A DNA stretch of 32,000 nt, taken from contig OY843585.1 in NCBI GenBank assembly GCA_963692945.1, positions 1,140,001 through 1,172,000 of the forward strand, given 5' to 3'. The stretch's first letter is position 1. The number at the start of each line of letters is the position of its first letter. The position numbers and the translations under genes were made by a program. The notes under the pieces were generated by a model. That model worked only from the letters and a program-made list of their open reading frames with translations, had not been told where the DNA came from and did not search any database. Below, in pieces: positions 3,035 to 32,000 of the stretch. This DNA comes from Bdellovibrionales bacterium (GTDB lineage Bacteria > Bdellovibrionota > Bdellovibrionia > Bdellovibrionales > UBA1609).

Positions 3035-3080
3035 AGTTCCTCCTCTTTTTAAAAGCCCCTCTTTGAAGACATTTAAAAAA

Positions 3081-13664: not shown

Positions 13665-13728
13665 ACTTTTAGTGTATTTAATTACGTTAGAATCTGTTTG
13701 TTCTAAGAGATATTCTTTCTGTAATTCT

Positions 13729-14133
13729 TTAATTGGATTTACTTTTTTTTAAGGGTTTGTTTTCAGAAAGAGCATTTCTAATAAATTTAATCAATGCTTT
13801 AGATCTACCAATACGAATCATATCTTTTGGTGTTCGTTCCCCTAAAAAAGGATTAGGAGTAAAAAACCAACGCATAGTTTTATCTTCATCTTCAAAAAAA
13901 TTAGCAACCAAGTTGATAGCTGTAGCCCATTCCCTCATTCGTTCTTTTAGTTCTTGAGGCATTTTTTCATCGTATCTAATAGAAGATAATTTCACTCCTG
14001 AAGATTGAGAAACTTCTTGTTTTTTTAATTCTAGTATTTTAACAACTGCTTCTCCTTTTACATTTTTCCCTTTAAATAAGGAAAGCCTATCTTTAGGGAG
14101 AGTGAATGCTTTATTTGATTGAAATTGAACCAT
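13729..14133 (-). CDS. Xre/MbcA/ParS-type antitoxin (DUF2384-like toxin-binding domain)
   Basis: C-terminal pattern MRWFFTPNPFLGERTPKDMIRIGRSKALIKFI, typical of RES-partner antitoxins. AAGGAGG SD upstream. Confidence 0.7.
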   Translation of the reverse strand: MVQFQSNKAFTLPKDRLSLFKGKNVKGEAVVKILELKKQEVSQSSGVKLSSIRYDEKMPQELKERMREWATAINLVANFFEDEDKTMRWFFTPNPFLGERTPKDMIRIGRSKALIKFIRNALSENKPLKKSKSN

Positions 14134-14423
14134 AAATTCCTCCTTCTTTTTAACTTATCGGATTTTTTTAACATAGATTAAATCTATTTTCCACGCTTTT
14201 CCTTCTTTTTTCCACATTTTTCCTCCATTTTATAGACCTCTGCCATTAAAAAGGTATAAAAATAGCATCTCATTCAAAATAAAACCTTACTTCTTCGCTT
14301 TTTTACTATTCTTATGTTTTTTATAATAATTAAAAATTAAATTTTCTTTATTAGAGAAAAGAGATATTTAAAAAATCTACACCTCTTAGTAATAGCCTAA
14401 AACTACAAAAAAATAATGAAAAA

Positions 14424-17400
14424 CTAATATATTTTAGTATTTAACCAATTCTGTATACATTGACATATTTCATCTTGATGAATTGGTAATAAGGCAGTTT
14501 TAGATTTTACTAATTGAATCAAACTATCAGCTATCTTTTTTGGATTTTCAGATCTTCCAAAGGATAATTGATTCAAAGTTTCTTTCACAATGACCTCCTG
14601 ACTAGAAAGTAAGATAGGAGAATTTTGAAATAGATCAATAAAAAAATCTGAAGTGACACAAATAATACTTTGTAAATTTGAAACAGGCCCTAAAAAGAAT
14701 AATCCTCTTTGAAAACCAAAATGGTTAACTCCATATTGTCCTTCTTTTAATAAAAACATAAGTATCTTATGATCTATTGGTATATAAGTTTGATTTAATT
14801 TTACTAATTCAGCTTTAAATTGGATAGACTTATTAACATCAATAATTTGTTGATTTTCAAAATATCTAACCATATCAAATAGTCTAACTCCTAAAGATTC
14901 AAAATCATTTTTAGCAAGTGTTCTAGAAACTTCATCCTCACATAAAAGAATTATGTTTTTTTCTTCTTTAACCACCAATAATGGATCACAAAATTCTTTT
15001 CCCAGAAGTTTCTCCATTTCATTTATTTTTTCTCTGCTTATTATCAATGAATCACTTATTGATTTAATTTGACAATGATCTTTAGCCCATTGTTTCACTT
15101 TTTTAAGGAAGTCTAAATTTTCTACTATTTTTTCTGGTGAAGTGAAAGATTTTTTTGGCTGCTCATTTTCTCCACCAGGAATAAGCATTAATAACCCATC
15201 TTTAGCATGTAATTTCCTACTTTGTATAAGGTTTTCTAAAGAATCTATTGTAGATTGACATATATAAAGATTAAATTTGTTATTACTTCTCTCTAGATAT
15301 TGTTCTAATTTTATTCCATGAAGTGTAATAAGAGATGATAAATCTATTATCAAGTCACTATAATTATTCAAAACTGTAAGAGAGTTATTGTAATCATCTC
15401 TTTCAGGTTGAGAGGATATGAATTTATCTTTCTTAGATCTAGTTAAATATTCAATTACTTCTATAGGATGTTGATTGATAATTTTCGATATAGCTCCAAT
15501 ACCTATTTCTCCTTTTTTATAATATTGAAATACTTGATTATTCCTTTTTTCTATTTGTGAACTATCTGCCATAAATTGTCTCATCGATTGTAATATATCT
15601 TTAGCTGTTGCATTTTTTGTAATAGAGATGGATTTCATAAAATTATTTGAAGGAAAATTTATATTCATATTGCTTGGAATATCCTGATATTTATAAATAT
15701 ATTTACTTTTTATATCTACGATTTTATACTTTTCGTTTCCAATATCAATTACATCTCCCTTCTTTTTTCCTAATAATTTTTTAGATAACTCATGCCCTGG
15801 AGTAAATATATCTGCTGACTCCTCAATAATAATTTCTCTTTCTGTTTGATTATTTATTTCTTTAATTTTTACATAATAATCTAAATCTACTTTATCACTT
15901 TGAAATAAAATAGAATTTTGCTCTTTAATTTGACCATAAACAGTAACCAATTCAAAATATAATCTTTGTGCTTCTAAGCTTGAAGGATGATTCTTGATAT
16001 TTTGATATTGAATTTTTAAAGCTTTTTTAAAATCCCGTATATGTATATAAGCTATTGAAAGATAGTTTATTTGCTTAACAGATAATTGTTCTAAATTAGT
16101 TATAGAATCTAAAAGTTTTTTAGCTTCTATAACTTTTTGTTCCCTTATATAAGCAAAGATTAATTGTAATTTTATTATGCTATTGTCAGGATTTAAATGA
16201 ATAAATTGTTTACAATAATTTATTGCTTTTTTTCTATTTCCTAAAGTTTCATGGACATGAAATAAAACATCAATAGGCTCTATTCTATTAGGAAATTTTT
16301 TGAATAATTGTTTTGCTAACTCTATAGCCTTTTCATTCTTCCCATTTTCAAAATAAACATGTAATAATTTAAATTTTTCAGGGTGATTCATATTGTTTTC
16401 TGTGATTTTTTCTAATAAAGATTCACACATCCTATACATCTTTGAAAAATACAACTCAAGCACAAGTTGTTGAATATCTCTGATATGAACATTATTTTTT
16501 TTAGACAAACTAATTGCTTCTTTAAGATAGTTATTTTTTTGCTCGATATTTTTTTTATGACTCTCAATTTTAGATTTTAAGATTAAAGTTAATATATTGC
16601 CTCTATCATCTTCAAAAAAAGCATCTAATATCTTTTCTGCTTCATTAAAATCTCCAAAATTGATTAATCTAAATATTAAATATCTTTTTGCTTCGATTCT
16701 ATTATCTTGACTTATAGATTCATCAATAATTATTTTTCTTAATAATTTTTTCCCTTTTTCTTTGTTATCTGTAAAAAAATACAAATCTGCTAATTTTAAA
16801 TTCATTTCAAATGTTTTTTCTTTAATTTTTTCTAATATAATAATACTTTCTTCAATTTTTCCTATTACTTCTAAAAATCTACATAACTCTATTTTTAAGT
16901 CTTTATTTTCAGGAAAAATATCAATTCCCTTATTGATAACTTGAATAGCCTTATCTATCTGTCCATTAATTTCAAGAGATATAGCATAATGTATATACCA
17001 ATATGGATGAAACTTTTTTAATTCATCAAAATCTCTATTTGTAGTTAACTTTTTATAAATATCTATAATTTTTTCTAATTCAGGAATTACACTATCTGGA
17101 GCACATCTTGATGTAAATACCTTATATTTCTCTAAAATGATTTGTAAAGACATTTCTGCATATTCAGATTCTACAATATGATCTTTATTTTTACACGAAA
17201 GTTTTAACCATTTTTCAGCTTGCTCATACTGTTTTTTTCTTATACTAATATGAGCTAATGCATGAATCATCCTATCATTTTCTTTCAAGTCTGCTGGAAT
17301 GCTATCAATAATTTCTTCTAAAGTTTTATCCTCTCTATCCTGAATTTGTACATTAATAATGTAAGCATTTATATTTAACGGATTTAATTCTTTAACTTTT

Positions 17401-18227
17401 TCTATATATTGTTTTGCTTTTTCTATATCATTTCTAATTAGATAACCCATAGCACAATTATAATTAGCATCTTCATCTTCTTTATTAAACTGTAATGCAC
17501 CTATCAATAATTTACATCCTTCCATATTTTCATTCATTTTTATTTTTGCACACCCCATATTAGTTATGACTCTATATTTTTCTTTATCATCTAATATATG
17601 CCATTCTTCTGCTTTAAGTTTTTCTAACTGCTTAAAGGCTGTTTGTGGTTTGTTATCTATTAAATCTTTTATTCTGTTAAGTTCAGAATGAGAACTATTA
17701 CTCTTAATTAAGTTTAGATCTAATTCACTATTCAAATTATATTGAACAGCATTATATTTAGATTTTTTTATGAATTTATCAATACCATAAAATTTTTGAT
17801 ATATTGTAGGATGTTTTTCAAATAAATCTTTTATTTCATCCCAACTATGAATTTCTACAGAAAAAAGATCTTGATTTCGATGTTTTTCAGAAATGATTCT
17901 TGCTTCTTTTTGTATATTTGCATCTCTTTTACAAGTTGTTGCTAAAATAAATTTTTTTAAACTAGGGTCAAAATTTTTTGCTTTTTCTACTTCTTTAAGT
18001 AACTCTTCTTTCTTAATTTTTGAGGTAACCTCTCTTTTTTTGCACTGTATTCCTATATCTTGATCTTGCACAAAAATATCCACACCATCTTGAGATTGAC
18101 CTTGTCTTCCATTTATTTGAGTTTGCTCTCCATACTCTGCTTTATATAACTCCAAACATATTTTTTCAAAAAGACCTCCATCACTAGGAGGAGGAATTTG
18201 TAAGTTAAACAAAAAAAAGCCCTTCAT
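14424..18227 (-). CDS. Large multidomain protein: N-terminal Mrr/restriction-endonuclease-like domain, long TPR-like helical repeat array, GreA/B C-terminal-like domain, C-terminal PIN-like domain
   Basis: aa 15-145: GGLFEKICLELY...GQSQDGVDIFV...IGIQCKKRE...FILATTCK (Mrr_cat-like D...QxK pattern). aa ~190-770: repeated helical-hairpin TPR-like units. aa ~778-842: VDLDYYVKIKE...FTPGHELSKKLLGKKKGDVIDIGNEKYKIVDI (GreA/B C-terminal pattern). aa ~955-1125: LIIDLSSLITL ... QSTIDSLE ... ILLCEDEVS (acidic residues spaced as in PIN folds). Confidence 0.75.
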   Translation of the reverse strand: MKGFFLFNLQIPPPSDGGLFEKICLELYKAEYGEQTQINGRQGQSQDGVDIFVQDQDIGIQCKKREVTSKIKKEELLKEVEKAKNFDPSLKKFILATTCKRDANIQKEARIISEKHRNQDLFSVEIHSWDEIKDLFEKHPTIYQKFYGIDKFIKKSKYNAVQYNLNSELDLNLIKSNSSHSELNRIKDLIDNKPQTAFKQLEKLKAEEWHILDDKEKYRVITNMGCAKIKMNENMEGCKLLIGALQFNKEDEDANYNCAMGYLIRNDIEKAKQYIEKVKELNPLNINAYIINVQIQDREDKTLEEIIDSIPADLKENDRMIHALAHISIRKKQYEQAEKWLKLSCKNKDHIVESEYAEMSLQIILEKYKVFTSRCAPDSVIPELEKIIDIYKKLTTNRDFDELKKFHPYWYIHYAISLEINGQIDKAIQVINKGIDIFPENKDLKIELCRFLEVIGKIEESIIILEKIKEKTFEMNLKLADLYFFTDNKEKGKKLLRKIIIDESISQDNRIEAKRYLIFRLINFGDFNEAEKILDAFFEDDRGNILTLILKSKIESHKKNIEQKNNYLKEAISLSKKNNVHIRDIQQLVLELYFSKMYRMCESLLEKITENNMNHPEKFKLLHVYFENGKNEKAIELAKQLFKKFPNRIEPIDVLFHVHETLGNRKKAINYCKQFIHLNPDNSIIKLQLIFAYIREQKVIEAKKLLDSITNLEQLSVKQINYLSIAYIHIRDFKKALKIQYQNIKNHPSSLEAQRLYFELVTVYGQIKEQNSILFQSDKVDLDYYVKIKEINNQTEREIIIEESADIFTPGHELSKKLLGKKKGDVIDIGNEKYKIVDIKSKYIYKYQDIPSNMNINFPSNNFMKSISITKNATAKDILQSMRQFMADSSQIEKRNNQVFQYYKKGEIGIGAISKIINQHPIEVIEYLTRSKKDKFISSQPERDDYNNSLTVLNNYSDLIIDLSSLITLHGIKLEQYLERSNNKFNLYICQSTIDSLENLIQSRKLHAKDGLLMLIPGGENEQPKKSFTSPEKIVENLDFLKKVKQWAKDHCQIKSISDSLIISREKINEMEKLLGKEFCDPLLVVKEEKNIILLCEDEVSRTLAKNDFESLGVRLFDMVRYFENQQIIDVNKSIQFKAELVKLNQTYIPIDHKILMFLLKEGQYGVNHFGFQRGLFFLGPVSNLQSIICVTSDFFIDLFQNSPILLSSQEVIVKETLNQLSFGRSENPKKIADSLIQLVKSKTALLPIHQDEICQCIQNWLNTKIY

Positions 18228-18265
18228 ACAATATCACCATTGTTCTTGCTAAGATTAATAGTCCT

Positions 18266-18433
18266 TTAATTTATTTCTTCATAATCTCTAATTATTCCAT
18301 GAAGATTGTTTACACCTACTCTAATCTCTTCTGTACTATTATCTATTTTTTCACAAAAATTCTTTGCAAATTTTTTAATATCTTTTATATGCTCTTCTAT
18401 TAAATCCCTAATCTCACTATAGTGAACACTCAT
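18266..18433 (-). CDS. Small acidic helical protein, 55 aa (hand-called, below the track cut-off)
   Basis: MSVHYSEIRDLIEEHIKDIKKFAKNFCEKIDNSTEEIRVGVNNLHGIIRDYEEIN. ATG preceded by aacaaaggagtaaagt (strong SD). It ends 38 nt upstream of the 1267-aa gene on the same strand. Confidence 0.55.
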   Translation of the reverse strand: MSVHYSEIRDLIEEHIKDIKKFAKNFCEKIDNSTEEIRVGVNNLHGIIRDYEEIN

Positions 18434-18483
18434 ACTTTACTCCTTTGTTAATAAAAATAAAAACTTTTGTTAAAGAAAGATAC

Positions 18484-18660
18484 TTTTAAGATCATAGGGT
18501 GGTAAGTTGATTGTTTTAAAAGATCTATTCTATTTAAAAAAAATTTAGTTTTTCTAAGTACTTATCATCCTACCGTTCAAAGTTTAAGCTTCATACTTTT
18601 TAATAGTCTCGTATCAATAAAAAAATCTGTTTAAGTTTCATCTGTTTTAAAACTATACTA
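18484..18660 (+). repeat. Intergenic repeat family, copy A
   Basis: ttttaagatcatagggtggtaagttgattgttttaaaagatctattctatttaaaaaaaatttagtttttctaagtacttatcatcctaccgttcaaagtttaagcttcatactttttaa aligns by eye along ~125 bp with 24768-24902 and with the reverse complement of 31114-31262. Confidence 0.65.
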
Positions 18661-18770
18661 TTTATGCAATAATTCTCTGTTTTTAGGTAAAAATCTCAGT
18701 ATAAATATAGTTTTAACTATACTTTATATGTAGAAATTACTCATTTTTAAGTAAAAACTACATATAAAAA
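18651..18770 (+). promoter_or_regulatory. Two ~56-bp direct repeats with a 64-bp period, upstream of abiEi (candidate operator/promoter)
   Basis: aactatactatttatgcaataattctctgtttttaggtaaaaatctcagtataaa (from 18651) versus aactatactttatatgtagaaattactcatttttaagtaaaaactacatataaa (from 18715). Each contains a near-palindrome tttttaRgtaaaaa. Confidence 0.4.
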
Positions 18771-18806
18771 TTGATTTTACAAGAGAATTACTGTATAAAT
18801 GAAGTT

Positions 18807-19700
18807 ATGAAAAAACAATTACTTACAACCAAACAAAAGCTTTCTGCTTTATTTGCTTCTGGTGATTTTATAAGAATCGACGATGCTAAAAATATACTAA
18901 GACTATCAAGGGTTCAAACTTCTAAAACTCTATCAAAATGGGCAAAACAAGGTTGGTTGAGGCGAATCGCTTCTGGTGTTTATATACCTGTTCCTCTTGG
19001 TATTGGTGATGATGAGCAAGTTCTAGATGATCCTTGGGTTGTAATACCTGAATTATTTCCAACTTATTATATTGGAGGTTTATCAGCAGCTTCTTATTGG
19101 GAACTCACAGAACAAATTTTTAAAAATACTTTTGTTTTTACAACAAAAGCTGTTAGGTCTAACACTACTCTTATACAAGATAATACATTTATTATAAAAA
19201 ATATTAACCAACGAAAAATATTTGGTACAGAACAAATATGGAGAGGAAGAAGAAAAATTTTTATATCAGATGTTTATAAAACTTTAATTGATATGTTAGA
19301 TGACCCTTCTGTTGGAGGAGGCATTCAGCATGTCTCTTATTGTTTTGATACTTTGATAAAATTAGATTTTAAAAAGAGGCAAGGACATAGATTGTTATCA
19401 CGAAAAAGAAGTGAACTAAAAAATGGAAGATCTCTGGAATATGATGATTTAAAAGAGTCTAGACAAAAAAAAGATTTTGAAAAATTAATCACTTACTCTA
19501 AGAGGATTAATAACGGCAGTGTTTTTAAAAGGCTTGGTTTTCTTGCAGATCAAAATCCTCAATCTAGAAATCTAGCTATGGAGTGTGAAAAATATTTAAC
19601 TAAAGGATATGCTAAACTAGATCCTTCTATAAAATGTGATAAGCTTATAACAAAATGGCGATTATGGATTCCAAGTTTCTGGTTTAAAAAGAATTTATGA
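18807..19700 (+). CDS. abiEi: AbiEi-family antitoxin / transcriptional regulator (type IV TA)
   Basis: N-terminal wHTH-like segment (ILRLSRVQTSKTLSKWAKQGWLRRIASGVYIPVP). Gene order and a 4-nt overlap with an AbiEii-type NTase gene. The track ORF starts at TTG 18771; I prefer ATG 18807 (MKKQLL...). Confidence 0.7.
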   Translation: MKKQLLTTKQKLSALFASGDFIRIDDAKNILRLSRVQTSKTLSKWAKQGWLRRIASGVYIPVPLGIGDDEQVLDDPWVVIPELFPTYYIGGLSAASYWELTEQIFKNTFVFTTKAVRSNTTLIQDNTFIIKNINQRKIFGTEQIWRGRRKIFISDVYKTLIDMLDDPSVGGGIQHVSYCFDTLIKLDFKKRQGHRLLSRKRSELKNGRSLEYDDLKESRQKKDFEKLITYSKRINNGSVFKRLGFLADQNPQSRNLAMECEKYLTKGYAKLDPSIKCDKLITKWRLWIPSFWFKKNL

Positions 19701-20898: not shown

Positions 20899-22887
20899 TC
20901 ACTTCCATAACTCGCTTTCTGTTTTGTATTTACCACTATAAACAGCATGGTAAGCCGAGGGGATATCTATAGGCTTCACAGGTAAACCTTTAAACTTTCC
21001 GGTTTTAAAAACCTTGATTCCTTTTTTAGAAAGACTAACACTTTGTTTAGCATATTCATTCCAACCCTTTTGAGACCAACATCTCTTATCAAGTGACTTT
21101 TTTAAAAATCTTTTAAATTCAAAAAAGGATCTGTATTTTGCCTTTATCAAAGAGAGATTTCCTGTTCCTAAAAAACAACCAAAACCCTCAAAGTCTTTTC
21201 TATAAGTTTTATCAACAGCAACAGGAATGTCTATAGGCTTCACAGGTAAACCCTTAAACTTTCCTACAGGTAATCTCGGCAAACCCTTAAACCTACCACT
21301 CTTAAAAACCGACAAACCTCCCACAGCACCCTTAGAACCCAACACAGCACCCCTCAAGCCAGAAACACCCTTAACACCAGAAGCACCTCTCACAACACCC
21401 CTCAAACCAGAAACACCCTTAACTCCAAAAGAGCCAGAAGCACCCTTAACTCCAGAAACACCCCTCAAGCCAGAAGCACCCTTAACTCCAGAAGAACCAG
21501 AAGCACCCTTAACTCCAAAAGAGCCAGAAGCACCTCTCACAGCACCACTCAAACCAGAAGCCCCCTTAACTCCAGAAAAACCAAAAGAACCCAAAGAACC
21601 CCCCAAAGAACCAAAAGAACCAACAACAGCCCAAACTTCCAAAGAAACTCTACAATACTCTTTCCACTCCACTTGACCCTTAAGGTTTAAACTTTGAACA
21701 AATTTTTTAGCCTCAACATAAGATCTATAATTTCTTTTGCGAGTTGGAATATTTCCACTTCCTAAAAAATCCCCCCAACTAAAGTTTTCATTCCTAAAGT
21801 TTTTATAATGATGATAGACAGCCCTTGGTATATCAACGGGACGCAAAGGGAGTCCTTTAAACTTCCCTTTATCAATAACCAACCGACTTCCTTTAAACTT
21901 CCCTCTACCAGTAACCAACCGACTTCCTTTAAACTTCCCTTTATCAATAACCAACCGATTTCTTTTTCTTGCCAGATCTGAATCTCTACAATAATCCCTC
22001 CACTCAAACTGATTTTTTAAATGAAGGTTTTTTACAAACAAGCATGCCTTTTTATAACTTCTATAAGAAAGGGGTTCTCGCTTTGGTTGAACAAAAAGTA
22101 AAAAGAAACTCCAACCTCTCCACTGACTTTGATAAATCTTTTGAGGGTGGTCAGGAATGTTTGTAGGTTTAACTTTTAATCCTTTAAACTTCCCTTTTTT
22201 AAAAACCTTTAAACTCTCATATTTTTTAGAAACTTCACAATACTCTTTATAAGTCTTCTTCGAATCAATGAAAACATGATGTTCATTCAATCTTCTCACC
22301 CATTTGTAAGCTATAGAAAAAGAACAATATTTTTTTTGATAAGGAGCCAGATGCTTAGAGTCTAAAAAATCCCTGTAGCCCTTCCATTCCTTTTTATAAA
22401 CGGCGTAGGGATCAAATGGAACTTTTCCTGTTGGAAATTTTGGGAGCAAGACTTGCCCATGACAGATTTCACCTTTAGCCCAGAGTTCAAATTCTTTTTT
22501 ACTTCCAAGTTTTAGTTTTCTAACATAAGCCCTTGCTTTTTTATAAGACCAAAAACCTTTTGACCTTTGATGAGGTGAAAAATGATTTGTCCCTAAAAAA
22601 TCCCCCCAACCCTTCCACTCTTTTTTATAAACAGAGTGAACAGACGAGGGTATGTCTTTTGGCTTTTTATTAGATTTAGCCCAACAAATAAACTCCCCTC
22701 TATTCTTAAACTTTTTAGATTGAATATACTTTTTAGCTTCCAAAAAACTTTTGTAGCGTAAAGATACAACATCTAATTTCTTACTAGACTTAACTAAGAC
22801 AATAGATGCTTTTTTATTCTTAAACTTTTTAGCTTGAATGTATTTTCTAGATTCTGAAAAACTTTTATAACTTTTTTGGTAAGGCAT
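20899..22887 (-). CDS. Repeat protein built from integrase-repeat-like modules with a central Gly-X-Y (collagen-like) segment
   Basis: At least 5 modules of the type YRSY.EAKKFV..L.LK...EW.EYC....GKFKGLPVKP.DIP....VYK.EWKGWGDFLG. aa 421-526 are Gly-rich with long runs of G-X-Y triplets. Confidence 0.7.
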   Translation of the reverse strand: MPYQKSYKSFSESRKYIQAKKFKNKKASIVLVKSSKKLDVVSLRYKSFLEAKKYIQSKKFKNRGEFICWAKSNKKPKDIPSSVHSVYKKEWKGWGDFLGTNHFSPHQRSKGFWSYKKARAYVRKLKLGSKKEFELWAKGEICHGQVLLPKFPTGKVPFDPYAVYKKEWKGYRDFLDSKHLAPYQKKYCSFSIAYKWVRRLNEHHVFIDSKKTYKEYCEVSKKYESLKVFKKGKFKGLKVKPTNIPDHPQKIYQSQWRGWSFFLLFVQPKREPLSYRSYKKACLFVKNLHLKNQFEWRDYCRDSDLARKRNRLVIDKGKFKGSRLVTGRGKFKGSRLVIDKGKFKGLPLRPVDIPRAVYHHYKNFRNENFSWGDFLGSGNIPTRKRNYRSYVEAKKFVQSLNLKGQVEWKEYCRVSLEVWAVVGSFGSLGGSLGSFGFSGVKGASGLSGAVRGASGSFGVKGASGSSGVKGASGLRGVSGVKGASGSFGVKGVSGLRGVVRGASGVKGVSGLRGAVLGSKGAVGGLSVFKSGRFKGLPRLPVGKFKGLPVKPIDIPVAVDKTYRKDFEGFGCFLGTGNLSLIKAKYRSFFEFKRFLKKSLDKRCWSQKGWNEYAKQSVSLSKKGIKVFKTGKFKGLPVKPIDIPSAYHAVYSGKYKTESELWK

Positions 22888-23070
22888 GTTGAACTATTCA
22901 CTATCTATGCAAGCGACACTTTGCTTGGATATATTTCTTAGCTTTTGAAAAACTTTTGTAACTTTTTTGGTAAGGCATGTTGAACTATTCACTATCTACA
23001 AGATACACTTTGCTTGAATGTATTTCTTAGCTTTTGAAAAACTTTTGTAACTTTTTTGGTAAGGCATTTT
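22888..23070 (-). repeat. Two extra tandem ~90-bp copies of the 5' end of gene 20899..22887
   Basis: atgccttaccaaaaaagtta.aaaagtttttc starts (minus strand) at 22887, 22978 and 23067. The upstream copies encode MPYQKSYKSFSKAKKYIQAKC.. and then hit stops. Confidence 0.8.
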
Positions 23071-23916
23071 TTAGTAAGCTCCACTAAAAGCCGAAGTATG
23101 ATCTGAGTCACATAAACCATAACCTACTGAAAAAAACCAACGCTTTGTAAAACCAACTTTATCACCTATTAGGAATCCTCTTTGATCAGCTGAGGCTCTC
23201 CAATGAGGTTGTCCAGTAGAATATTTAGGACTTTTTGTGTGTGTAATAGAAATACACACTACTCCTCTACCGATATCAGCTACTCCTGTGCATACGAGTC
23301 CATCTTTATATGACTGACCTGATGAAAAAGTCTTGCCAGAACTAACTGCGTGAAATATTGATGAGTAAGACTGCCTTGTTCTAACTCTATATAGACCATA
23401 ATTATCACATTTAAAACCTAACTTTTGAAAAGAGTTACAACCCCTTACCCCGTTTAATGCTAAACAATTCTGTATGGCTTTACTTGCGTTGATTGTAGAG
23501 ATTTTTATTACTCTTTTTACAGCGCTTTCTTGATATTTATTATACGCAGTTATCACAATAGAAGCTAATAGTCCTAAAATTCCAACTACGATTAAAACTT
23601 CTATAAAAGAAAATCCTTTTTTATTTTTACTTAGTTTTTTCTCCTCTGCTTTCAATTCTTTTATGGAGTAATCTTCATATTTTCTATAAGTTTCTTTGCT
23701 TAGCTCGCTACAGTTTCTAAGTCCTTTACCTGTTTCAATAGATTTATAATTCCTACATTTCATTTTTATACTATCTAAAGAACAAGTAAAACTTTCATCA
23801 TTCTTTTTTAAATTTTTACAAAGCTGGTCTCTATGAAGAACATTTTCTCTATAAATTATAAAGACTTTTAGCTCATGTAGATTTGTCCATTTCATTCTTG
23901 TTTTTCTTTTACTCAT
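23071..23916 (-). CDS. Pilin-like protein with a prepilin-type motif ~100 aa from the annotated N-terminus
   Basis: KKG|FSFIEVLIVVGILGLLASIVITAYNKYQESA at aa 99-130. No in-frame ATG lies close to the motif. An in-frame TTG at 23653-23655 would give a normal 14-aa leader (MKAEEKKLSKNKKG). Confidence 0.65.
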   Translation of the reverse strand: MSKRKTRMKWTNLHELKVFIIYRENVLHRDQLCKNLKKNDESFTCSLDSIKMKCRNYKSIETGKGLRNCSELSKETYRKYEDYSIKELKAEEKKLSKNKKGFSFIEVLIVVGILGLLASIVITAYNKYQESAVKRVIKISTINASKAIQNCLALNGVRGCNSFQKLGFKCDNYGLYRVRTRQSYSSIFHAVSSGKTFSSGQSYKDGLVCTGVADIGRGVVCISITHTKSPKYSTGQPHWRASADQRGFLIGDKVGFTKRWFFSVGYGLCDSDHTSAFSGAY

Positions 23917-24011: not shown

Positions 24012-24656
24012 TTAAGGACTACATACTCCACTACTACACTGAACAGTTGTTTTGGATGTTGTTCCTGTTCCACAATTAGTTGGTGAAGCCACGCTAGGAG
24101 CTGTTCCAGTGCAAACAGGTGGAGTGCAACCAGATGGGCATGAAGCAAGAACATGAGTTCTACAAGTAACTAGTGTTGAACTACCTCCAGCAGTGTAAGA
24201 AGAAGGAGCTAAGTCAATACAAGCTGCCCCACCAGGTGATCCAGTTCTTTGCACTGGTACATTACTTGTAGTATCTATAGACCAACAACCTTCATTTCCA
24301 TCACCATCATTTCCAACATATACTTCAAAACAAACATTATTAGCTGTTCCATTATCAACAGCAATTGTTGCTCCAGACTGAGATTTTACTCCTATCTCTG
24401 TTATAGAATTACACCCATCAAAACTACCTAAGACCCTACAAGTATTATAAGATTTCTCTATTAAATTTAAACTTGATGCTACCACTCCTCTCCTAGCACT
24501 ATCTTGATATTTTTGATACGCAGGAATAGCAACAGCAGCTAACACTCCAATTATGGCGACAACCACAAGCAATTCTATTAAGGAAAACCCTTTTTTCCTC
24601 TTTTCTTTTTTGTTCTTATTTAAAGGCTTGAACCAGCCTATTTTTTTAAAGTCCAT
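24012..24656 (-). CDS. Type IV pilin (candidate major pilin of the second cluster)
   Basis: Leader ...KEKRKKG|FSLIELLVVVAIIGVLAAVAIPAYQKYQDSA. AAGGAGG SD. Cys-rich C-terminal region. Hairpin terminator downstream. Confidence 0.85.
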   Translation of the reverse strand: MDFKKIGWFKPLNKNKKEKRKKGFSLIELLVVVAIIGVLAAVAIPAYQKYQDSARRGVVASSLNLIEKSYNTCRVLGSFDGCNSITEIGVKSQSGATIAVDNGTANNVCFEVYVGNDGDGNEGCWSIDTTSNVPVQRTGSPGGAACIDLAPSSYTAGGSSTLVTCRTHVLASCPSGCTPPVCTGTAPSVASPTNCGTGTTSKTTVQCSSGVCSP

Positions 24657-24767
24657 ACGACCTCCTTATTGATAACAAATAGATAGAAATACAATTATAT
24701 CTATACCGATATATTCTCATTTAAGAAAAACTAAAAGGCAATTTTTTGATTGAAAAAGTCGGTTTTT

Positions 24768-24902
24768 AAGATTTTAGGCTAGTGAATGGATTACTTTAAA
24801 AGATAGATTTTTATTTAAAAAGCTAGTGTTTTTAAGCATTTATTGACTTACTGTTCATAATTTAATCTCTTTTAAAAAGATATTCTCAAAATGAAACACT
24901 GC
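24768..24902 (+). repeat. Intergenic repeat family, copy B
   Basis: tttaagattttaggctagtgaatggattactttaaaagatagatttttatttaaaaagctagtgtttttaagcatttattgacttactgttcataatttaatctcttttaaaaagatattctcaaaatgaaacact. It ends 5 nt from the XRE gene stop codon. Confidence 0.65.
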
Positions 24903-24907
24903 TTTAA

Positions 24908-25189
24908 TTATTTGATCTTTTTCAGGTCTATTTTTTTGCTTTGAAGCATCAAAGGACTAACATTTAAAGCCTTTGAAATAGCTGTTATGGTTCCAACCCT
25001 CAAATCCTTTATTCTTCTTTGCTCAATATCTGCAATGGTAGTCAAAGATAGGTTAGATTTTTTAGCCACATCTAGTTGGGTATAGCCCCTATATTTTCTA
25101 ACAAGTTCCATGTTGATAGAAAAGTTTGAAATAATCCTTTTAAGCTCCAAGTCTTCTATCACTATATCTTCAGGTTTTAATCGTGCCAT
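24908..25189 (-). CDS. XRE-family helix-turn-helix transcriptional regulator
   Basis: 93 aa. HTH_3 pattern RKYRGYTQLDVAKKSNLSLTTIADIEQRR. Confidence 0.75.
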   Translation of the reverse strand: MARLKPEDIVIEDLELKRIISNFSINMELVRKYRGYTQLDVAKKSNLSLTTIADIEQRRIKDLRVGTITAISKALNVSPLMLQSKKIDLKKIK

Positions 25190-25427
25190 AACTAGAAAAT
25201 AATACTTTTTTCTACTTATTAAATATGGAAATACCCCTTGTTGATAAAATGGCTATATTCTAAGAAATAGGAGTTTAAAGTATCAAAAAACAACCCTGCC
25301 TATACCAGAAGAAGCAAATGGTAAAGATACAATCTACAAAATTTTTGAAAAAACCTACATATATTAAAAATTTAGATTAGTAAATTGATTGTTTTAAAAG
25401 ATATATTTTATTTAAAAAATACAAAAA

Positions 25428-27161
25428 TTACTTCAAAAATCTTTTTGGGAAACTTATAGGAAATTGATGTCCTTCAAGATAAAAAGATATAGCCTTTTCT
25501 TCTTGATCAGGGAAAATTTGAGCAAAATTTCTTTTTGAGATGTAGAAGATATTTCTAGCAAAAAGTTTTTTCTCGTCATTACAATTTCTTAACTCCATTT
25601 CTGAGGTGGTAGTCGTAAGTCCTAACACAGATTTAGGCATAGGGCTGTAAGATATAGGTGAAGATACGATTTGTAGCATTTGCAATGCAGAGCCTTTCCT
25701 AGTGTCAACAATTTCAGTTAACCCTCCTGCATGAATATCACCACTTAAAATAAAAATCTCTTTTCCTTTTCTTGCTAGTTCTGTCAGAACCTCCATTATT
25801 TCATTTAAAGACTTCCTATTTGAATCAGAGCTTAGTCCATCTTCCATATCATCACTTAACTCAGGTAGTTCAGGTATGGCTGCAATGCCTTTAGGAATGT
25901 ATGAAAGTATAATCAGTATGAGTATAATAGAACCAATGATAGGAAGCAGTATAACAAAGATAAAATAGAGTATAGAAAAAATGGGAATTGGTATTTTTCC
26001 GCATAAACTACAATTAAGAATTGATACTAGTAATGGGCTAAGAAAACATAAAGCAGATATAGGCAACCATAGTTTCCATTTTTGAATTACATACCAAGGC
26101 TTATTTTTCTCAACATCCGTTTTAAGTTTGAATATGAATCTAAAAAGTTCAGATATTCTTTTATCACCAAGAAAATTAGTTCTAAAAGCTACAACGGGAC
26201 TTACAAAAAAGATTTTTTTAATATGATCTGGAGTTTGTTTTAAGTTATCCAATATTTTGTTTTTGTGTTCTTCTGTCCATATTTGATTTTTAGATGAATT
26301 TCTTTCTGATCTAAAATCAGCCAATACAAACTTCATATCTCCCCAGTTTAAAATAGAAGAAAATTTATGAATTGGTTTTGGATTTCTAGAAGCTTGATAA
26401 ATTTTAAAGGATTCTTTTGCAGTTTCAAAAAACTTCCACCAATTCTTTTTAAACCCTGATTCTTCTTTAGAGTTGAAAGACTCAAGACGACTTCCCCAAC
26501 CATCCGTTATATCATGGTCATCCCACATAGTTACACTTAGTGTAGAAGCTAAAACTTTTCTATAACTAATATTTCCCCAATATTTTTGATATTGTTCAAT
26601 AAATCTTTCCTGTAGAGATTTTTTAATTTCACCATCTGCATCTTCTTGTTTAAGTTTATTTATAAATTCTTTTTCAATATCATCATTATAGATTTGATCC
26701 CCTCCTAAAACGAGAAGTCTAACATTTTTATCTTTTTTTAAATGTTCAGAAAGTTTTCTCCACATTTCCCAACCTTCACCAGCACTTCCATTTTTTTGCT
26801 TAAAAGGATTATGGCAACTCATAAGTATAAAAGATTTTTCAATATCATTTTTTCCTAAAATTTGAAAACGACAATCTTCTTCTGTTAAACCTCCCTCTAA
26901 GTCTAAAGATTGTCCATTAGATAAAAATTTGTATTTATATAATCTATTATCTTCTAAATTTTCAAATTTAAAACTAAACAATCTATAAAGTTCATTTTTC
27001 ACCTGTGATTCTTTAGAATCAATTTTTTTATCTTCATATAAAATCTGACATTCTATTTTTTCTATTTCAGATTTGTGTGGAAGAGCAATAAATACCTCAA
27101 CTCCTGTTTCACCATGAGGTCCCAAAAACGGCCCAATTATTTTAACTTTATTTTTATTCAT
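25428..27161 (-). CDS. PhoD-like metallophosphatase interrupted by a transmembrane insertion
   Basis: Motifs in order: LMSCHNPF, VLGGDQIYNDD, MWDDHDITDGWGS, ILSGDIHAGG. aa ~362-424 are strongly hydrophobic (LWLPISALCFLSPLLVSILNCSL ... IPIPIFSILYFIFVILLPIIGSIILILIILSYI). ATGA overlap with the upstream gene. Confidence 0.7.
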   Translation of the reverse strand: MNKNKVKIIGPFLGPHGETGVEVFIALPHKSEIEKIECQILYEDKKIDSKESQVKNELYRLFSFKFENLEDNRLYKYKFLSNGQSLDLEGGLTEEDCRFQILGKNDIEKSFILMSCHNPFKQKNGSAGEGWEMWRKLSEHLKKDKNVRLLVLGGDQIYNDDIEKEFINKLKQEDADGEIKKSLQERFIEQYQKYWGNISYRKVLASTLSVTMWDDHDITDGWGSRLESFNSKEESGFKKNWWKFFETAKESFKIYQASRNPKPIHKFSSILNWGDMKFVLADFRSERNSSKNQIWTEEHKNKILDNLKQTPDHIKKIFFVSPVVAFRTNFLGDKRISELFRFIFKLKTDVEKNKPWYVIQKWKLWLPISALCFLSPLLVSILNCSLCGKIPIPIFSILYFIFVILLPIIGSIILILIILSYIPKGIAAIPELPELSDDMEDGLSSDSNRKSLNEIMEVLTELARKGKEIFILSGDIHAGGLTEIVDTRKGSALQMLQIVSSPISYSPMPKSVLGLTTTTSEMELRNCNDEKKLFARNIFYISKRNFAQIFPDQEEKAISFYLEGHQFPISFPKRFLK

Positions 27162-27793
27162 TTTTTAAACTCCTGTTCAAATTCTACATAAAAATCAATA
27201 AGTGAGTTATATACAGCTTTGTTTTCTCTTTGAAAATCAGAAAGCGTTTGATGATTAAAACATGAGTAGCCTTCTCTGTAATACCTTTCATAACAGACCT
27301 TTAGTTTATTAAACATTTTTTCAAATCTTTTATTTATTTTTTTGAGATCCTTTTCTATTTTAGGTTTACTTTTTTTATTTTTAATATCTTCTTTTTCAAT
27401 AGCATTGTCTTGAATATAACTTAAGGTGTCTTTATAGCTCTTTTTCCAATCTTTGAATAATTTTTTTAAATTTTTAAATTCAGATTCGACATCTGTTTCT
27501 TCTTTAAATTTTCTGTTTTTATATAATTTTTTTAAAGTTCTATAGAAAAGATCATATGAGATAGAAAGTTTTATTGATGATCCTATATTGTTATTTTGTA
27601 ATAACGAAAGATTTAAAGTCTTTATAATATGAGATGAAGTAACATTATTTATTGATGTTAAAATTGGAATATTGAAACATTTAATTATGAAAACACCAAG
27701 AAATCCTACTATACATAATCCAATAAAATTACCAACACCTTTTTCTATAATACTCTTATATAAAAAATTATTAGTAAATCGTTCCATTTTCAA
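27158..27793 (-). CDS. Membrane-anchored Lys-rich helical protein (hypothetical)
   Basis: One N-terminal TM segment (VGNFIGLCIVGFLGVFIIKCF), then a charged helical region. The track start is TTG 27793; ATG at 27787 is an alternative. Either start lies at or within a few nt of the upstream gene's stop codon (27790-27792). Confidence 0.6.
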   Translation of the reverse strand: MKMERFTNNFLYKSIIEKGVGNFIGLCIVGFLGVFIIKCFNIPILTSINNVTSSHIIKTLNLSLLQNNNIGSSIKLSISYDLFYRTLKKLYKNRKFKEETDVESEFKNLKKLFKDWKKSYKDTLSYIQDNAIEKEDIKNKKSKPKIEKDLKKINKRFEKMFNKLKVCYERYYREGYSCFNHQTLSDFQRENKAVYNSLIDFYVEFEQEFKK

Positions 27794-28488
27794 CTTAAAT
27801 CATTTCCTTTTTTTTGTTCACTACTTCTACTGCCAAAATAAAAACCAATTACAGCTCCAGATAAACTTCCAAAGCCAGTCAAAACAGTACTTAGTTTGTC
27901 ACTACTTATACAGTTACTCAAAAGACCAAATATAAGAGCCATAAGAAAAGAACCGATGATTGAAATAGCTATCATTCCTCTTATAGAACCTTCGGGTAAA
28001 CCAAGTCCTTTTAATTTTGGAATATCACTTCCATTTTTTATATACTTAAAAAATAATAAAGATATAATAGGATATCCTATGAGTATGACTAATAAAAATG
28101 CTAAATAGTATCCATATAAATTATCTTCGCATTGAGATAATTTATCTTGGGTTTCTCCAAAAGCTGACCATGTAAAAAGGAAAAAGTTTAAAAAAGAAAT
28201 CTTTAGCAACATATATCTACTTATTATGTTTGAGATTTTCAATTTTTTCTTATTAGCTTTTCTATTATATAAACAATCAATTGTTTTATGAAGTCTATAG
28301 ATTTGATCATACTCTGTTACAGACTCCTTTAACTCATCAAACAGTTTTTTAAATTCCTTTTCTGTATCCACTTTCCCACCTTTATTTGTTTTGAAATTTT
28401 TTTGATGAAATTTAGCAACCTTATCTATCAACCTATCTCTTGAATCTTGCCAAGTCTTTTGAAAACTGTTTCTCATTTGTTTATCCAT
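27790..28488 (-). CDS. Polytopic membrane protein (hypothetical), ~95-aa cytoplasmic helical N-terminus plus ~4 TM segments
   Basis: Hydrophobic segments YMLLKISFLNFFLFTWSAF, YYLAFLLVILIGYPIISLLFF, GMIAISIIGSFLMALIFGLL and LTGFGSLSGAVIGFYFG (glycine-zipper-like). First gene of a three-gene operon. Confidence 0.6.
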   Translation of the reverse strand: MDKQMRNSFQKTWQDSRDRLIDKVAKFHQKNFKTNKGGKVDTEKEFKKLFDELKESVTEYDQIYRLHKTIDCLYNRKANKKKLKISNIISRYMLLKISFLNFFLFTWSAFGETQDKLSQCEDNLYGYYLAFLLVILIGYPIISLLFFKYIKNGSDIPKLKGLGLPEGSIRGMIAISIIGSFLMALIFGLLSNCISSDKLSTVLTGFGSLSGAVIGFYFGSRSSEQKKGNDLS

Positions 28489-28729
28489 AATGAATTATAA
28501 ATCTATGAGATTTTATTTAAACAATCAAGCAAAAACATAGATTGCTCTATAAAAATATTTTAAACTTTTTTAACACTGATCATTTTTTGTTCATGTCTCA
28601 AATTGAGAGTTTTTTATTATGCAAGAAACAACTGTTTTTAAAAAAATAAGAATTTTTTTTAAATTTTCAAAGATACATCTGATAATCTTAGTGAGTCGGT
28701 TTTTTAACAAATAACAAAGGAGTGAACAC

Positions 28730-28921
28730 ATGAGTCAAGAAATATATAATGAAGAGGAAGCATATCGTAAACAAATTGAAGCTAAAACAGAGATTCTTAA
28801 TACTATAATTAATTGCTCTAAACGCATAAATACATATCTAAACAAAGGAGAACATCTAGATACATGTTTAAAAAATATTAAAGACTTATCAGAAGCTTAC
28901 TCTTTAGTTCAGGAAAATTGA
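28730..28921 (+). CDS. Small acidic helical protein, 63 aa
   Basis: Strong SD within the conserved leader ttttttaacaaataacaaaggagt (28700-28723). It ends 47 nt upstream of the RloC-like gene. Confidence 0.6.
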   Translation: MSQEIYNEEEAYRKQIEAKTEILNTIINCSKRINTYLNKGEHLDTCLKNIKDLSEAYSLVQEN

Positions 28922-28968
28922 ACAAAAATGAAAATAAATAAAAACAAAGATTAGGACTTTTAATTATT

Positions 28969-31113
28969 ATGAAAATCACTTTAAAAAATGTTGCAAGTTG
29001 TGATGAAAATCCTGTAATCCTTGAAACAGATCAAAAAATCAATTTAGCTTATGGTTTAAATGGAACAGGAAAAACAACACTTTCTGATTATCTCTACTAT
29101 AAAGATCAAAGTAAAGATAAGTTTAATGATTGTGATTTAACAGATACTGGAAACGCAAAGATATTAGTTTATAATCAAAATTTTATAAAAGATAATTTTT
29201 ATGATAAAGATAGTCTCAAAGGAATTTTTACATTATCTAAAGAAAATAAAGAAGCAGAAGAGTCAATAAAACAAGCTGAACAAAATATAAAAAAATTTGA
29301 AGAAGAGAAAACAAAAAAAGAAAAAGACAAAGAAGAATATGAAAAAAATCAAAAAATAAATTTAGAAGAAATTCAAAAAGCTATTTGGAGTATAAAAACA
29401 GATTATACAGGTGGCGATAGAGTTCTAGAGTTTTGTTTGATTAGCTTAATGGGGAAGAAAGAAAAACTATTCAATCATATTAAAAGCATTCAAAAATCAG
29501 AAAATCAACCAACATCAATAGAAGTACTAAAAAAAGAAGCTCGACTGATCAAAGAAGGTGAGCCACAAGAGACACTACCAAAAATTAAGATGAATATAAA
29601 AGATATTGAAGAAAACAGTATTTGGAAGGAAGTTATAGTAGGTAAAGAAGACAGCCCTGTTGCAAATCTTATTACAAAACTAAATAACTCTGATTGGGTT
29701 AAGCAAGGGGTAAATTATTTATCAATAAGTGAGGAGCAATGTCCATTTTGTCAGGAAAAAACTATTACTGAAACAGTAGCAAAAAATATCAAAGATTATT
29801 TTGATGAAACTTATGAAAATAAAATTACAGAAATTGAGTCATTATACAATCAGTACAAAGATAAACAAATATTAATACCAAAAATAAGCAAATACCAAAA
29901 CCATCCTTTAATAGAACAAGATAAAGATAGGATTGAAATCCTCTATAATAAATTAGTTACAACTTTGAATGATAATCTTTCAAGTATAAAACAAAAATCA
30001 GAGAATTCAAGTCAAAAAATAGAAATTAAAGAAACAAAAGATGAAATTACAGAAATTAATAATTTTATTGAAAAAATTAATCAAGATATCGCAATATATA
30101 ATGAAAAATTAAAAAATAAAGATCAAACCCAAAAAAAAATAAAAAATCAATTTTGGCAAATTATGCGTTGGAATTATGACAATGCACTAATTCAGCATGA
30201 AAAAAATAAAGATAAAACTGAGAAAAAAATAGAAGAAATAAACAATGAGATAACAGGTATTAACAAAAAAATATCTCTTCAAAAAGAAAATATAAAACAA
30301 CAACAAGAAAATATGATCAATATTGAAGGGGCAATAAATAATATCAATAATGGATTGAGAGAATTAGGAATTGAAGGATTCAATATAATAAAATTTCAGG
30401 AAAATTCATATAAAATTGTGAGAGAGGGTCAGGAAGAAGGACAGTTTCAAACTCTCAGTGAAGGTGAAAAGATGATTATAAGTTTTCTCTATTTTATGGA
30501 ATTATGCAAAGGAAAAGAAAGTAAGGAAGAAGTAGTAAAAAATAAAATTGTGGTGATTGATGATCCAATATCAAGCTTATCACATACTTATATTTTTAAT
30601 CTCAGTATTTGGATAAAAAACCATTTTTTTAAATCAGAAAATTATAAACAGATTTTGGTATTAACTCACAGCTTGTATTTTTTTCACGAACTCATAAGAT
30701 ACGATAAAAATAGAAAACTTTTTCGTTTTCTAAAACTATCAACAAATAAAATTCAAATTGAAAAAATGGAAGAAAATGAAATAAAAAATGAATACGAATC
30801 ATACTGGCAAGTTATTAAAGACCATGAAAATGGCAAAGCATCAAATGGATTGCTTGCAAATAGCATGAGGAACATACTTGAACATTTCTTTGGTTTTATA
30901 TATAAAGAAGGACTAGAAAAAAAATTAGAGTCCTTAGGTAAGGATAATAAATTCGAATCTTTTCTAAGGTATATGAATAGGGAATCTCATTCAGATGCTA
31001 TAAATATCACTGATGACAAAGAAATAGATTCAAAACTTTTTAAAGATGCTTTTAAAGAAGTATTTACTAAGTCTGGCTATGAAGAACACTATAAAAATAT
31101 GATGAAAACTTAA
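28969..31113 (+). CDS. RloC/PrrC-like AAA_13 ATPase (candidate anticodon nuclease)
   Basis: Walker A GLNGTGKTT. Long coiled-coil insertion containing CPFCQEK (zinc-hook-like CxxC). ABC signature LSEGEKM. Walker B IVVIDDPISSL. The C-terminal SMRNILEHFFGF ... NRESHSD resembles the Arg/Glu/His nuclease motifs of PrrC/RloC. Confidence 0.6.
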   Translation: MKITLKNVASCDENPVILETDQKINLAYGLNGTGKTTLSDYLYYKDQSKDKFNDCDLTDTGNAKILVYNQNFIKDNFYDKDSLKGIFTLSKENKEAEESIKQAEQNIKKFEEEKTKKEKDKEEYEKNQKINLEEIQKAIWSIKTDYTGGDRVLEFCLISLMGKKEKLFNHIKSIQKSENQPTSIEVLKKEARLIKEGEPQETLPKIKMNIKDIEENSIWKEVIVGKEDSPVANLITKLNNSDWVKQGVNYLSISEEQCPFCQEKTITETVAKNIKDYFDETYENKITEIESLYNQYKDKQILIPKISKYQNHPLIEQDKDRIEILYNKLVTTLNDNLSSIKQKSENSSQKIEIKETKDEITEINNFIEKINQDIAIYNEKLKNKDQTQKKIKNQFWQIMRWNYDNALIQHEKNKDKTEKKIEEINNEITGINKKISLQKENIKQQQENMINIEGAINNINNGLRELGIEGFNIIKFQENSYKIVREGQEEGQFQTLSEGEKMIISFLYFMELCKGKESKEEVVKNKIVVIDDPISSLSHTYIFNLSIWIKNHFFKSENYKQILVLTHSLYFFHELIRYDKNRKLFRFLKLSTNKIQIEKMEENEIKNEYESYWQVIKDHENGKASNGLLANSMRNILEHFFGFIYKEGLEKKLESLGKDNKFESFLRYMNRESHSDAINITDDKEIDSKLFKDAFKEVFTKSGYEEHYKNMMKT

Positions 31114-31262
31114 AAGTGTTTCATTTTGAGAATTTCTTTTTAAAAGAGCTTAAGCTTTGAACGATAGAATAATAACTGTTTAAAAACACTGGCTTTTTTT
31201 AAACAATTAAATCACTATCCTAAGACCTTAAACTATCCTTTTTTTAAAACAAAATCTTACTT
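31114..31262 (-). repeat. Intergenic repeat family, copy C (inverted relative to A and B)
   Basis: aagtgtttcattttgagaatttcttttaaaagagcttaagctttgaacgatag... is the reverse complement counterpart of 24768-24902. It starts directly after the RloC-like stop codon. Confidence 0.65.
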
Positions 31263-31362
31263 ATTTATTTTTCTTAACTAAGGATATGTCAATATGATGT
31301 ATAATAGCATATGTCTAGTTAAGGATAACTAGTTTTTTAACAAATAACATAGGAGTAAAATT

Positions 31363-31644
31363 ATGGAATCATATTTAGATATAAGTCGTTTTGAACCAGC
31401 TAGAATTGAATTTATAAATCAAGAAATCTCTCTAGAAAGAATTTTGGGAATCTATGACGAGCATAAAGATACTTTATTAGATCATTTAAAAAAAGATAAA
31501 GAAGAATTAGAAAATAGCTTAAAAATACCTGTAGATATAGGTGAAGAAATTCAAAAAGTACAACTTGAAGAAATTGAAAAAACAAAACAAGCTATTAAGA
31601 AAGTAGAAAATTACAAAAATACAAACTCTTACAATCTAAGGTAA
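31363..31644 (+). CDS. Small acidic coiled-coil protein, 93 aa
   Basis: Preceded by ttttttaacaaataacataggagt (31333-31356), which is 23 of 24 nt identical to the leader at 28700-28723. Confidence 0.6.
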   Translation: MESYLDISRFEPARIEFINQEISLERILGIYDEHKDTLLDHLKKDKEELENSLKIPVDIGEEIQKVQLEEIEKTKQAIKKVENYKNTNSYNLR

Positions 31645-31656
31645 TAGTACTTCATT

Positions 31657-32000
31657 ATGGCTTTAATTAAGAATAGTAAAGGTAAGGAAAATAGCGGATA
31701 TGTCCATATATTTGGCAATGAAAAACTAGGAAGGCTTATTAGTCGTGTTCATAGTGTTTCTAATAAAAATGGGCAAGAACTTAAAAACCTTATAAAAAAA
31801 TATTCAAAACAAATTCTTATAGATAAAAAAAAAGATATAGATAAACAAATAAAAGAATTTTTAAATAGTAGACAATCAGGAATATACCTTCTAAGTGTAG
31901 GAGATATAAAGCATAGAAAAAAACTAAAAGGAATGCAACCAGACTTCATTATTTTTAATAAGATAAATAATAAAAACCTAAAATGTTATTTATTGAAAGT
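31657..32000 (+). CDS. Partial ORF (continues beyond the window); function unknown, possibly a PD-(D/E)XK-type nuclease
   Basis: Hand-translated with no stops from ATG 31657 to the window end: MALIKNSKGKENSGYVHIFGNEKLGRLISRVHS...GMQPDFIIFNKINNKNLKCYLLKV. The PDF...(15 aa)...xLK segment is only loosely nuclease-like. Not in the track because it lacks a stop. Confidence 0.5.
   Translation, partial: MALIKNSKGKENSGYVHIFGNEKLGRLISRVHSVSNKNGQELKNLIKKYSKQILIDKKKDIDKQIKEFLNSRQSGIYLLSVGDIKHRKKLKGMQPDFIIFNKINNKNLKCYLLK

Follow-up and report, generated by a model that had tools for sequence, protein, structure and literature searches.

Results

A near-identical leader precedes three small-ORF-led operons

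The stretch analyzed here (hereafter the window) is 32 kb of sequence from a Bdellovibrionales bacterium (contig OY843585.1) with 29 genes, which are the genes covered by all figures on leader specificity given below. From 12.8 to 32 kb it holds a defense island made up of an Xre-RES pair, a 1267-amino-acid (aa) protein, AbiEi/AbiEii, an AAA_13 ATPase, and a partial open reading frame (ORF) at 31657. The 1267-aa protein, the ATPase, and the partial ORF are each preceded by a small ORF, and the three small ORFs are in turn preceded by nearly the same leader of 24 nucleotides (nt), which includes a Shine-Dalgarno (SD) sequence (Table 1). The window has ~30% G+C, with 22-28% at 14-19 kb and 26-32 kb versus 30-37% in the housekeeping part, and the low G+C at 14001-19000 and 26001-32000 is consistent with acquired DNA.

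The first copy of the leader reads TTTTTTAACAAATAACAAAGGAGT (28700-28723). The original prediction had paired it with a second 24-mer, identical at 23 of 24 positions, each lying 6 nt before the ATG of a small ORF. This was borne out by a mismatch scan of the window, in which no further match was found at up to three mismatches, and by 100 shuffles, which gave 0 matches. The two copies are alike over 28 nt (26/28), which span -31 to -3 relative to each ATG. A third version on the minus strand had been described as shorter; it is present, and it proved to be a full copy, whose halves TTCTTTAACAAA (18477-18466) and TAACAAAGGAGT (18450-18439) rebuild the 24-mer at 23/24 once a 15-nt insertion, AGTTTTTATTTTTAT (18465-18451), is removed. 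The insertion sits exactly between two TAACAAA half-sites. The window has six TTAACAAA octamers, four of them inside the three leaders. In the leader, AAGGAG lies 6-7 nt from the ATG, and the leader itself ends 5-6 nt from it. A profile of the module found no copy in the window beyond these three, and the 26 other gene starts all lack it, those of strong-SD genes included, in agreement with the claim that it is shared by three small-ORF-led operons.

Table 1. Coordinates of the leader copies, the ORFs that follow them, and the repeated segments upstream.
Feature	Position	Strand	Description
Leader copy 1	28699..28726	+	24-mer 28700-28723; AAGGAG 28717-28722, 7 nt before ATG 28730
Leader copy 2	31332..31359	+	24-mer 31333-31356; 23/24 versus copy 1; ends 6 nt before ATG 31363
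Leader copy 3	18439..18477	-	23/24 versus copy 1 minus 15-nt insertion 18451-18465; ends 5 nt before ATG 18433
63-aa ORF	28730..28921	+	No detectable homolog; two predicted helices; isoelectric point (pI) 5.0
93-aa ORF	31363..31644	+	No homolog even by exhaustive search; two predicted helices; pI 5.0
55-aa ORF	18266..18433	-	No detectable homolog; pI 5.2
AAA_13 ATPase, 714 aa	28969..31113	+	PADLOC single-gene candidate PDC-S06; PrrC/RloC-like
1267-aa protein	14424..18227	-	Borderline Mrr_cat, TPR repeats, weak GreAB-C match, PIN domain of TPR-GreABC-PIN family
Partial ORF, 114 aa seen	31657..32000	+	Matches ~227-aa type II restriction-enzyme profile (E 7.8e-11); cut by window end
Promoter-like segment before leader copy 1	28645..28698	+	-35 TTTAAA 28658-28663, -10 GATAAT 28681-28686; diverged homolog of module A 3' part
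Promoter-like module A 3' part before leader copy 3	18478..18533	-	-35 TTTAAA 18520-18515, -10 TATGAT 18496-18491
Segment between module A and leader copy 2	31234..31331	+	TATAAT 31300-31305; homologous to pilin-gene upstream region
Module A copy	31095..31233	+	Intergenic repeat beginning at stop codon of the AAA_13 gene
Module A copy	18480..18649	-	Upstream of 55-aa ORF
Module A copy	24760..24920	-	Upstream of pilin gene 24012-24656 (-), non-defense
Partial module A, 3' promoter-like part only	25372..25419	-	Upstream of XRE-family helix-turn-helix gene 24908-25189 (-)

The small ORFs look like coding sequence and lead defense-type genes

The small ORFs look like genuine coding sequence. Their frame-specific coding score is 0.38-0.46 per codon, compared with 0.33 +/- 0.10 for segments of true genes, and exceeds that of stop-free random ORFs of equal composition (z 4.2, 5.1, and 2.9); open frames of this kind would arise by chance in AT-rich DNA with a probability of 1e-2 to 7e-5, and all three are recorded as predicted proteins (NCBI/ENA-sourced). 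As predicted, the products are mildly acidic, with a pI of 5.0-5.2 and a net charge of -3 to -6, and AlphaFold models of the two tested, the 63-aa and 93-aa proteins, show two long helices in generic helical hairpins. The gaps from the small ORF to the next gene, expected at 12-47 nt, were measured at 47, 12, and 38 nt.

Three word-index searches and one exhaustive phmmer search (93-aa ORF; 1.84 billion representatives) returned the queries only, and none of the three ORFs had a significant match to a Pfam, NCBIfam, PADLOC, or PHROGs family, to a recognized antitoxin family, or to a DNA-binding family; the 93-aa ORF matched no helix-turn-helix family. A Foldseek search of the PDB with the small-protein models gave no informative match. 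Homology among the three was rejected as well (shuffle p 0.016, 0.07, and 0.84, with inconsistent alignment registers), in line with the earlier remark that they are not obviously related to each other. Nor are they N-terminal fragments of the large proteins, because alignments to homologs and profiles begin at the first residues of the latter. Visual inspection of two operons showed an AGGACT(A/T)TTAAT motif between the small and the large ORF, which was judged compatible with chance.

The downstream genes are of defense type, as had been proposed. The 714-aa ATPase matches PDLC04886 over residues 2-713 (E 3.2e-237) and AAA_13 (E 2.9e-120), and PrrC matches its C-terminal part only (1.2e-9), which agrees with the earlier description of an RloC-like ATPase. 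In the 1267-aa protein, first described as Mrr-TPR-PIN, the PIN family PF20698 scores 57.3 bits against a cut-off of 27.8 and multiple TPR families match, while Mrr_cat stands at 21.0 bits, exactly at its Pfam cut-off of 21, and the GreA_GreB C-terminal match is weak (E 0.073). That the third gene is large is not borne out by the visible sequence: it is cut by the window end and matched only by a 227-aa profile, and searches of its visible part against the PDB and plasmids found nothing.

The SD sequences of the large genes, all said to be weak, are poorer or misplaced; that of the 1267-aa gene is moderate, an SD-like GGTGAT element 7 nt upstream. In the neighboring Xre-RES pair (12834-14133, minus strand) a strong SD, AAGGAGG, precedes the antitoxin gene and the RES toxin gene lacks one, so that a strong SD on the first gene is followed by a weak one on the second, as in the small-ORF operons.

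These observations bear on the reading in which leader, small protein, and effector form one format, with the small protein as an obligatory antitoxin, chaperone, or trigger sensor. All three leaders do precede a small, apparently coding ORF and then a defense-type gene, in an order and with an SD pattern that mirror the adjacent Xre-RES pair. Against this, the small proteins have no detectable homologs and match no antitoxin, regulator, or defense family, and two of the effectors have homologs elsewhere that lack such an upstream ORF. No credible small ORF lies upstream of the AAA_13 homologs of Pseudoalteromonas and Yersinia (40-43% identity), and in Lactococcus the upstream neighbor of the homolog is a 431-aa DUF2130 gene at a gap of 92 nt (by annotated genes). 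Likewise, the Nostoc homolog of the 1267-aa TPR-PIN protein has no annotated small ORF upstream, and PDC-S06 is catalogued as a single-gene candidate system. Because they are absent upstream of homologs elsewhere, the small proteins are not conserved partners of the AAA_13 and TPR-PIN families, and we consider an obligatory partnership unlikely.

The leader is much better conserved than its flank

Between the 63-aa and 55-aa operons, the leader is identical at 23/24 positions versus 28/55 in the adjoining flank (Fisher p 7e-5). The T-run and the first half-site are also kept, though SD pairing does not need them. The leader probably has a sequence-specific role beyond the six SD bases, because it is near invariant while the adjoining promoter-like sequence has drifted to ~50% identity; this pattern indicates either a constraint on particular bases outside the SD or recent conversion.

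The leader folds no better than its shuffles (z -0.76 to +1.24), with no conserved stable structure, no dyad symmetry, and no hairpin. Rfam reports nothing in the window at gathering threshold, the sole match at E up to 1 near 31000-31400 reaching 19.7 bits against a gathering score of 70. A known RNA family, riboswitch, or attenuator was ruled out on these grounds, namely the lack of an Rfam match and of a significant fold.

The leader could instead be a post-transcriptional operator, bound by an RNA-binding protein (of the Hfq/Crc type, recognizing A-rich sequence, or of the CsrA type) or by a small RNA. Its conservation relative to the flank, its predicted single-strandedness, the insertion placed exactly between the half-sites, and the concentration of the TTAACAAA octamers would all suit such a role, as would the sequence AAUAACAA by the SD, which we take, by eye, to fit an AAnAAnAA or (ARN)3 pattern. 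Set against this, the motif match comes from inspection only, A-rich sequence is common beside SD sites, and no such regulator was identified in the window, and we regard the proposal as quite unlikely.

A mosaic of intergenic repeats ends in the leader

The leader closes, at the 3' end, a larger mosaic of intergenic repeats, one of which, ~150 nt long, we call module A. Module A occurs in three full copies and one partial copy, all confined to 18-31 kb of the window and all oriented alike with respect to the gene that follows. Two of them begin at, or a few nt from, the stop codon of the preceding gene. The best-conserved 3' part of module A is promoter-like and is the sole part retained before the XRE regulator gene.

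The regions upstream of the 63-aa and 55-aa ORFs are collinear over ~88 columns, with promoter-like hexamers at equal register (TTTAAA, then, after 17-18 nt, GATAAT or TATGAT), and their flanks next to the leader agree at 28/56 positions in fixed register versus a window null of 17 +/- 3.6 (p ~0.002). The region upstream of the 93-aa ORF matches that of the pilin gene from -270 to -45 (72% over 250 columns, with a TATAAT common to both) and switches to likeness with the 63-aa leader only from -31 (-31 to -3). Because the repeat family also precedes the pilin gene and, in part, the XRE regulator gene, this upstream context is not a signature of defense cassettes. What stands of the common cassette format first proposed is the shared leader, the apparently coding small ORF, and the defense-type gene; the conserved partner does not.

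Two of the promoter-leader copies, at 18439-18533 (-) and 28645-28726 (+), are inverted and read outward from a ~10-kb segment, which holds AbiE, an INT_rpt/collagen-like gene, two pilin-like genes, the XRE gene, and a PhoD-like operon.

Rfam gave no match to module A, and neither of its strands folds significantly (z ~0; consensus fold -6.2 kcal/mol). For lack of a significant fold, its identification as an attC site, a repetitive extragenic palindromic (REP) element, a miniature inverted-repeat transposable element (MITE), or a structured RNA was ruled out. A single 83-nt match to module A in plasmids was spurious.

The original prediction had also offered the leader as a recombination site. 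The direct copies at 28700 and 31333 would then flank an inserted 2.6-kb cassette (63-aa ORF, AAA_13 gene, and module A), as att-like sites, target duplications, or substrates of exchange. The direct repeats do bracket exactly one small-ORF-plus-effector unit, homology ends at the start codons, and the low G+C is typical of acquired DNA. Nevertheless, no integrase or recombinase was found among the proteins of the window, the leader lacks dyad symmetry or a hairpin, and the fold of module A is not attC-like on either strand. The third copy, moreover, is inverted, 10 kb away, and shares the longer promoter homology with copy 1, and the identical spacing from SD to ATG is better explained by function. 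We see very little chance that the leaders are recombination junctions.

The leader core recurs in other genomes as single copies

Among 185,579 species genomes scanned, a 19-nt core of the leader occurs as one copy each in 33 unrelated genomes, about the number expected by chance, and in none of these genomes is there a second copy. Pattern scans covering species genomes, metagenomes, and viral contigs likewise gave only unrelated single matches. The core behaves as a ribosome-binding context, because in 23/33 genomes with a match it sits 3-12 nt before an ATG.

Among the individual matches, an exact 19- to 21-nt core precedes atpE in an Oligoflexia metagenome-assembled genome, and an exact core precedes a 127-aa gene in an estuarine phage contig family, right after a TTGACA...TATGAT promoter. 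Both are probably convergent strong ribosome-binding sites.

That the leader is just a strong ribosome-binding context generic to its own genome, sampled three times in the window and linked without meaning to small ORFs and defense genes, would suit the recurrence of the 19-mer core in such contexts in many unrelated genomes and the limitation of our view of the source genome to 32 kb, and is hardly tenable given its absence from all 26 other window genes, its single-copy occurrence in the genomes with a match, and the conservation of a T-run and first half-site that SD pairing can spare.

Other repeats and genes in the window

By appearance, the genome is rich in intergenic repeats. Repeats of ~80 nt lie between genes at 2084-2160, 2210-2287, and 4222-4336 (families D11 and D13) and are unrelated to module A, and the intergenic stretch at 12089-12192 (family D20) holds a tandem pair of 44-nt repeats with 95% identity, spaced 60 nt apart. 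On the minus strand at 2377-4124, two shorter paralogous ORFs (2768-3034 and 2377-2712) come after a YhgA/Transposase_31-like gene (3081-4124), and all three have the C-terminal tail in common, as well as 250-nt repeats at the DNA level (families D2, D5, and D9). A 662-aa protein encoded at 20899-23087 (-) combines integrase-repeat units with a collagen-like Gly-rich tract; the 5' end of its gene and the region upstream are present in three tandem copies of ~90 nt at 22829-23087 (family D6).

Discussion

We favor, at what we would call even chances of being right, the explanation that a promoter-plus-leader module was copied or recombined before three unrelated operons, where it would drive a small first cistron and a more weakly translated enzyme. 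The 24-mer would then be the leader and ribosome-binding site within the 5' untranslated region (5'-UTR) of a module re-used in one AT-rich defense island. A sigma-70-like promoter (TTTAAA, a 17-18-nt spacer, and GATAAT or TATGAT) would start transcription ~35-50 nt before the ATG, with starts predicted at about 28693, 18484, and 31311. Provided that the predicted promoters are active, most of a 5'-UTR of 35-50 nt would consist of the leader. Being A-rich and unstructured and ending in AAGGAG at optimal spacing, it may provide efficient translation of the small first cistron, while the enzyme gene, which begins 12-47 nt after it and whose SD is poorer or misplaced, would be translated less. 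The outcome would be a high ratio of small to large protein under common control. The module would itself be part of the larger mosaic family of module A, which may also serve the pilin gene and, in part, the regulator gene. From the DNA sequence we infer that the promoters are active, where transcription starts, that small and large genes are co-transcribed, and how their expression compares, as well as whatever role the small proteins may have.

A toxin-antitoxin-like stoichiometry is a reasonable expectation, because the Xre-RES pair shows the same strong-then-weak SD pattern. That the small proteins are operon-specific negative modulators, as in toxin-antitoxin pairs, is a more tentative suggestion and one that we doubt more than we believe.

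Several points weigh against the copied module. Three copies of the leader are few, and their near-identity could reflect recent gene conversion and not constraint. The view taken here covers 32 kb, and the leader may be frequent elsewhere in the genome. The promoter assignment is weak, because promoter-like matches in this AT-rich window are no more common than in shuffles (58 found versus 67.8 expected). Finally, the strong-then-weak translation pattern is not uniform, because the GGTGAT element of the 1267-aa gene is a reasonable one. The shared leader is a modest curiosity, most likely a copied promoter plus leader, and not a proven new system.

Large-scale re-use of promoters before unrelated genes has been documented (Matus-Garcia, Nijveen and van Passel, 2012; PMC3575422), in a survey of putative mobile promoters that scored the region from -150 to -50 for at least 50 nt at no less than 80% identity before non-paralogous coding sequences. 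The segments described here resemble these elements (PMC3575422) in that similar non-coding sequence precedes non-homologous genes, homology ends at the coding sequence, and no Rfam or insertion-sequence match is found. They differ in that the best-conserved part here is a 24-nt stretch of 5'-UTR with its SD, at -31 to -3, a region excluded by the survey (PMC3575422). Held to the same length and identity thresholds, module A agrees with them no more than approximately: it reaches 99 nt at 79%, the regions upstream of the pilin and helix-turn-helix genes share 56 nt at 82%, and the leader covers 24-28 nt.

The operons also recall type II toxin-antitoxin systems such as Xre-RES, in which the first gene has a strong SD and a small acidic product and the larger enzyme gene close behind it has a weaker SD, here too within a defense island. 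Unlike antitoxins, however, the small proteins show no match to an antitoxin family or to a DNA-binding fold, and the homologs of the effectors elsewhere are stand-alone genes.

Regulators of the BrxR/CapW type, which carry a WYL domain, are found as a conserved regulator gene with its operator before diverse defense systems. As there, one conserved upstream element is coupled here to varied defense effectors, which would imply common control. The conserved element of BrxR/CapW systems is a protein-coding regulator, whereas here it is non-coding and the small genes differ from one another.

Integron cassettes offer another parallel, with unrelated genes in a repeated format and, here, a ~150-nt intergenic repeat right after a stop codon. 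In contrast to integrons, no integrase was found among the window proteins scanned, module A lacks an attC-like hairpin, and the cassettes carry promoter-like sequences of their own. A resemblance to restriction-modification systems controlled by C proteins is confined to the third operon, where the 93-aa ORF lies immediately upstream of the restriction-endonuclease-like ORF at 31657; unlike a C protein, the 93-aa product has no helix-turn-helix match and two long predicted helices, and no methyltransferase is visible within the window.

A bolder version of the operator idea would make the leader a bipartite translational operator, with two TAACAAA half-sites at variable spacing by the SD, joined to fast-evolving small proteins that modulate the effectors. 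We give it a small chance, below that of an operator in general. If it were true, unrelated defense operons would be placed under one post-transcriptional switch, in a plug-in defense format defined by a non-coding element and not by a conserved protein.

Returning to the copied promoter-plus-leader module, what it means depends on how the leader is distributed. If it is only a re-used promoter and ribosome-binding site, this is one more case of promoter re-use in a repeat-rich genome. If, genome-wide, it should turn out to be specific to small-ORF-led defense operons, unrelated immune genes would be wired together by a shared non-coding 5' leader, and the small proteins would then be candidate modulators of an AAA_13 anticodon-nuclease-like ATPase, a TPR-PIN nuclease, and a restriction enzyme.

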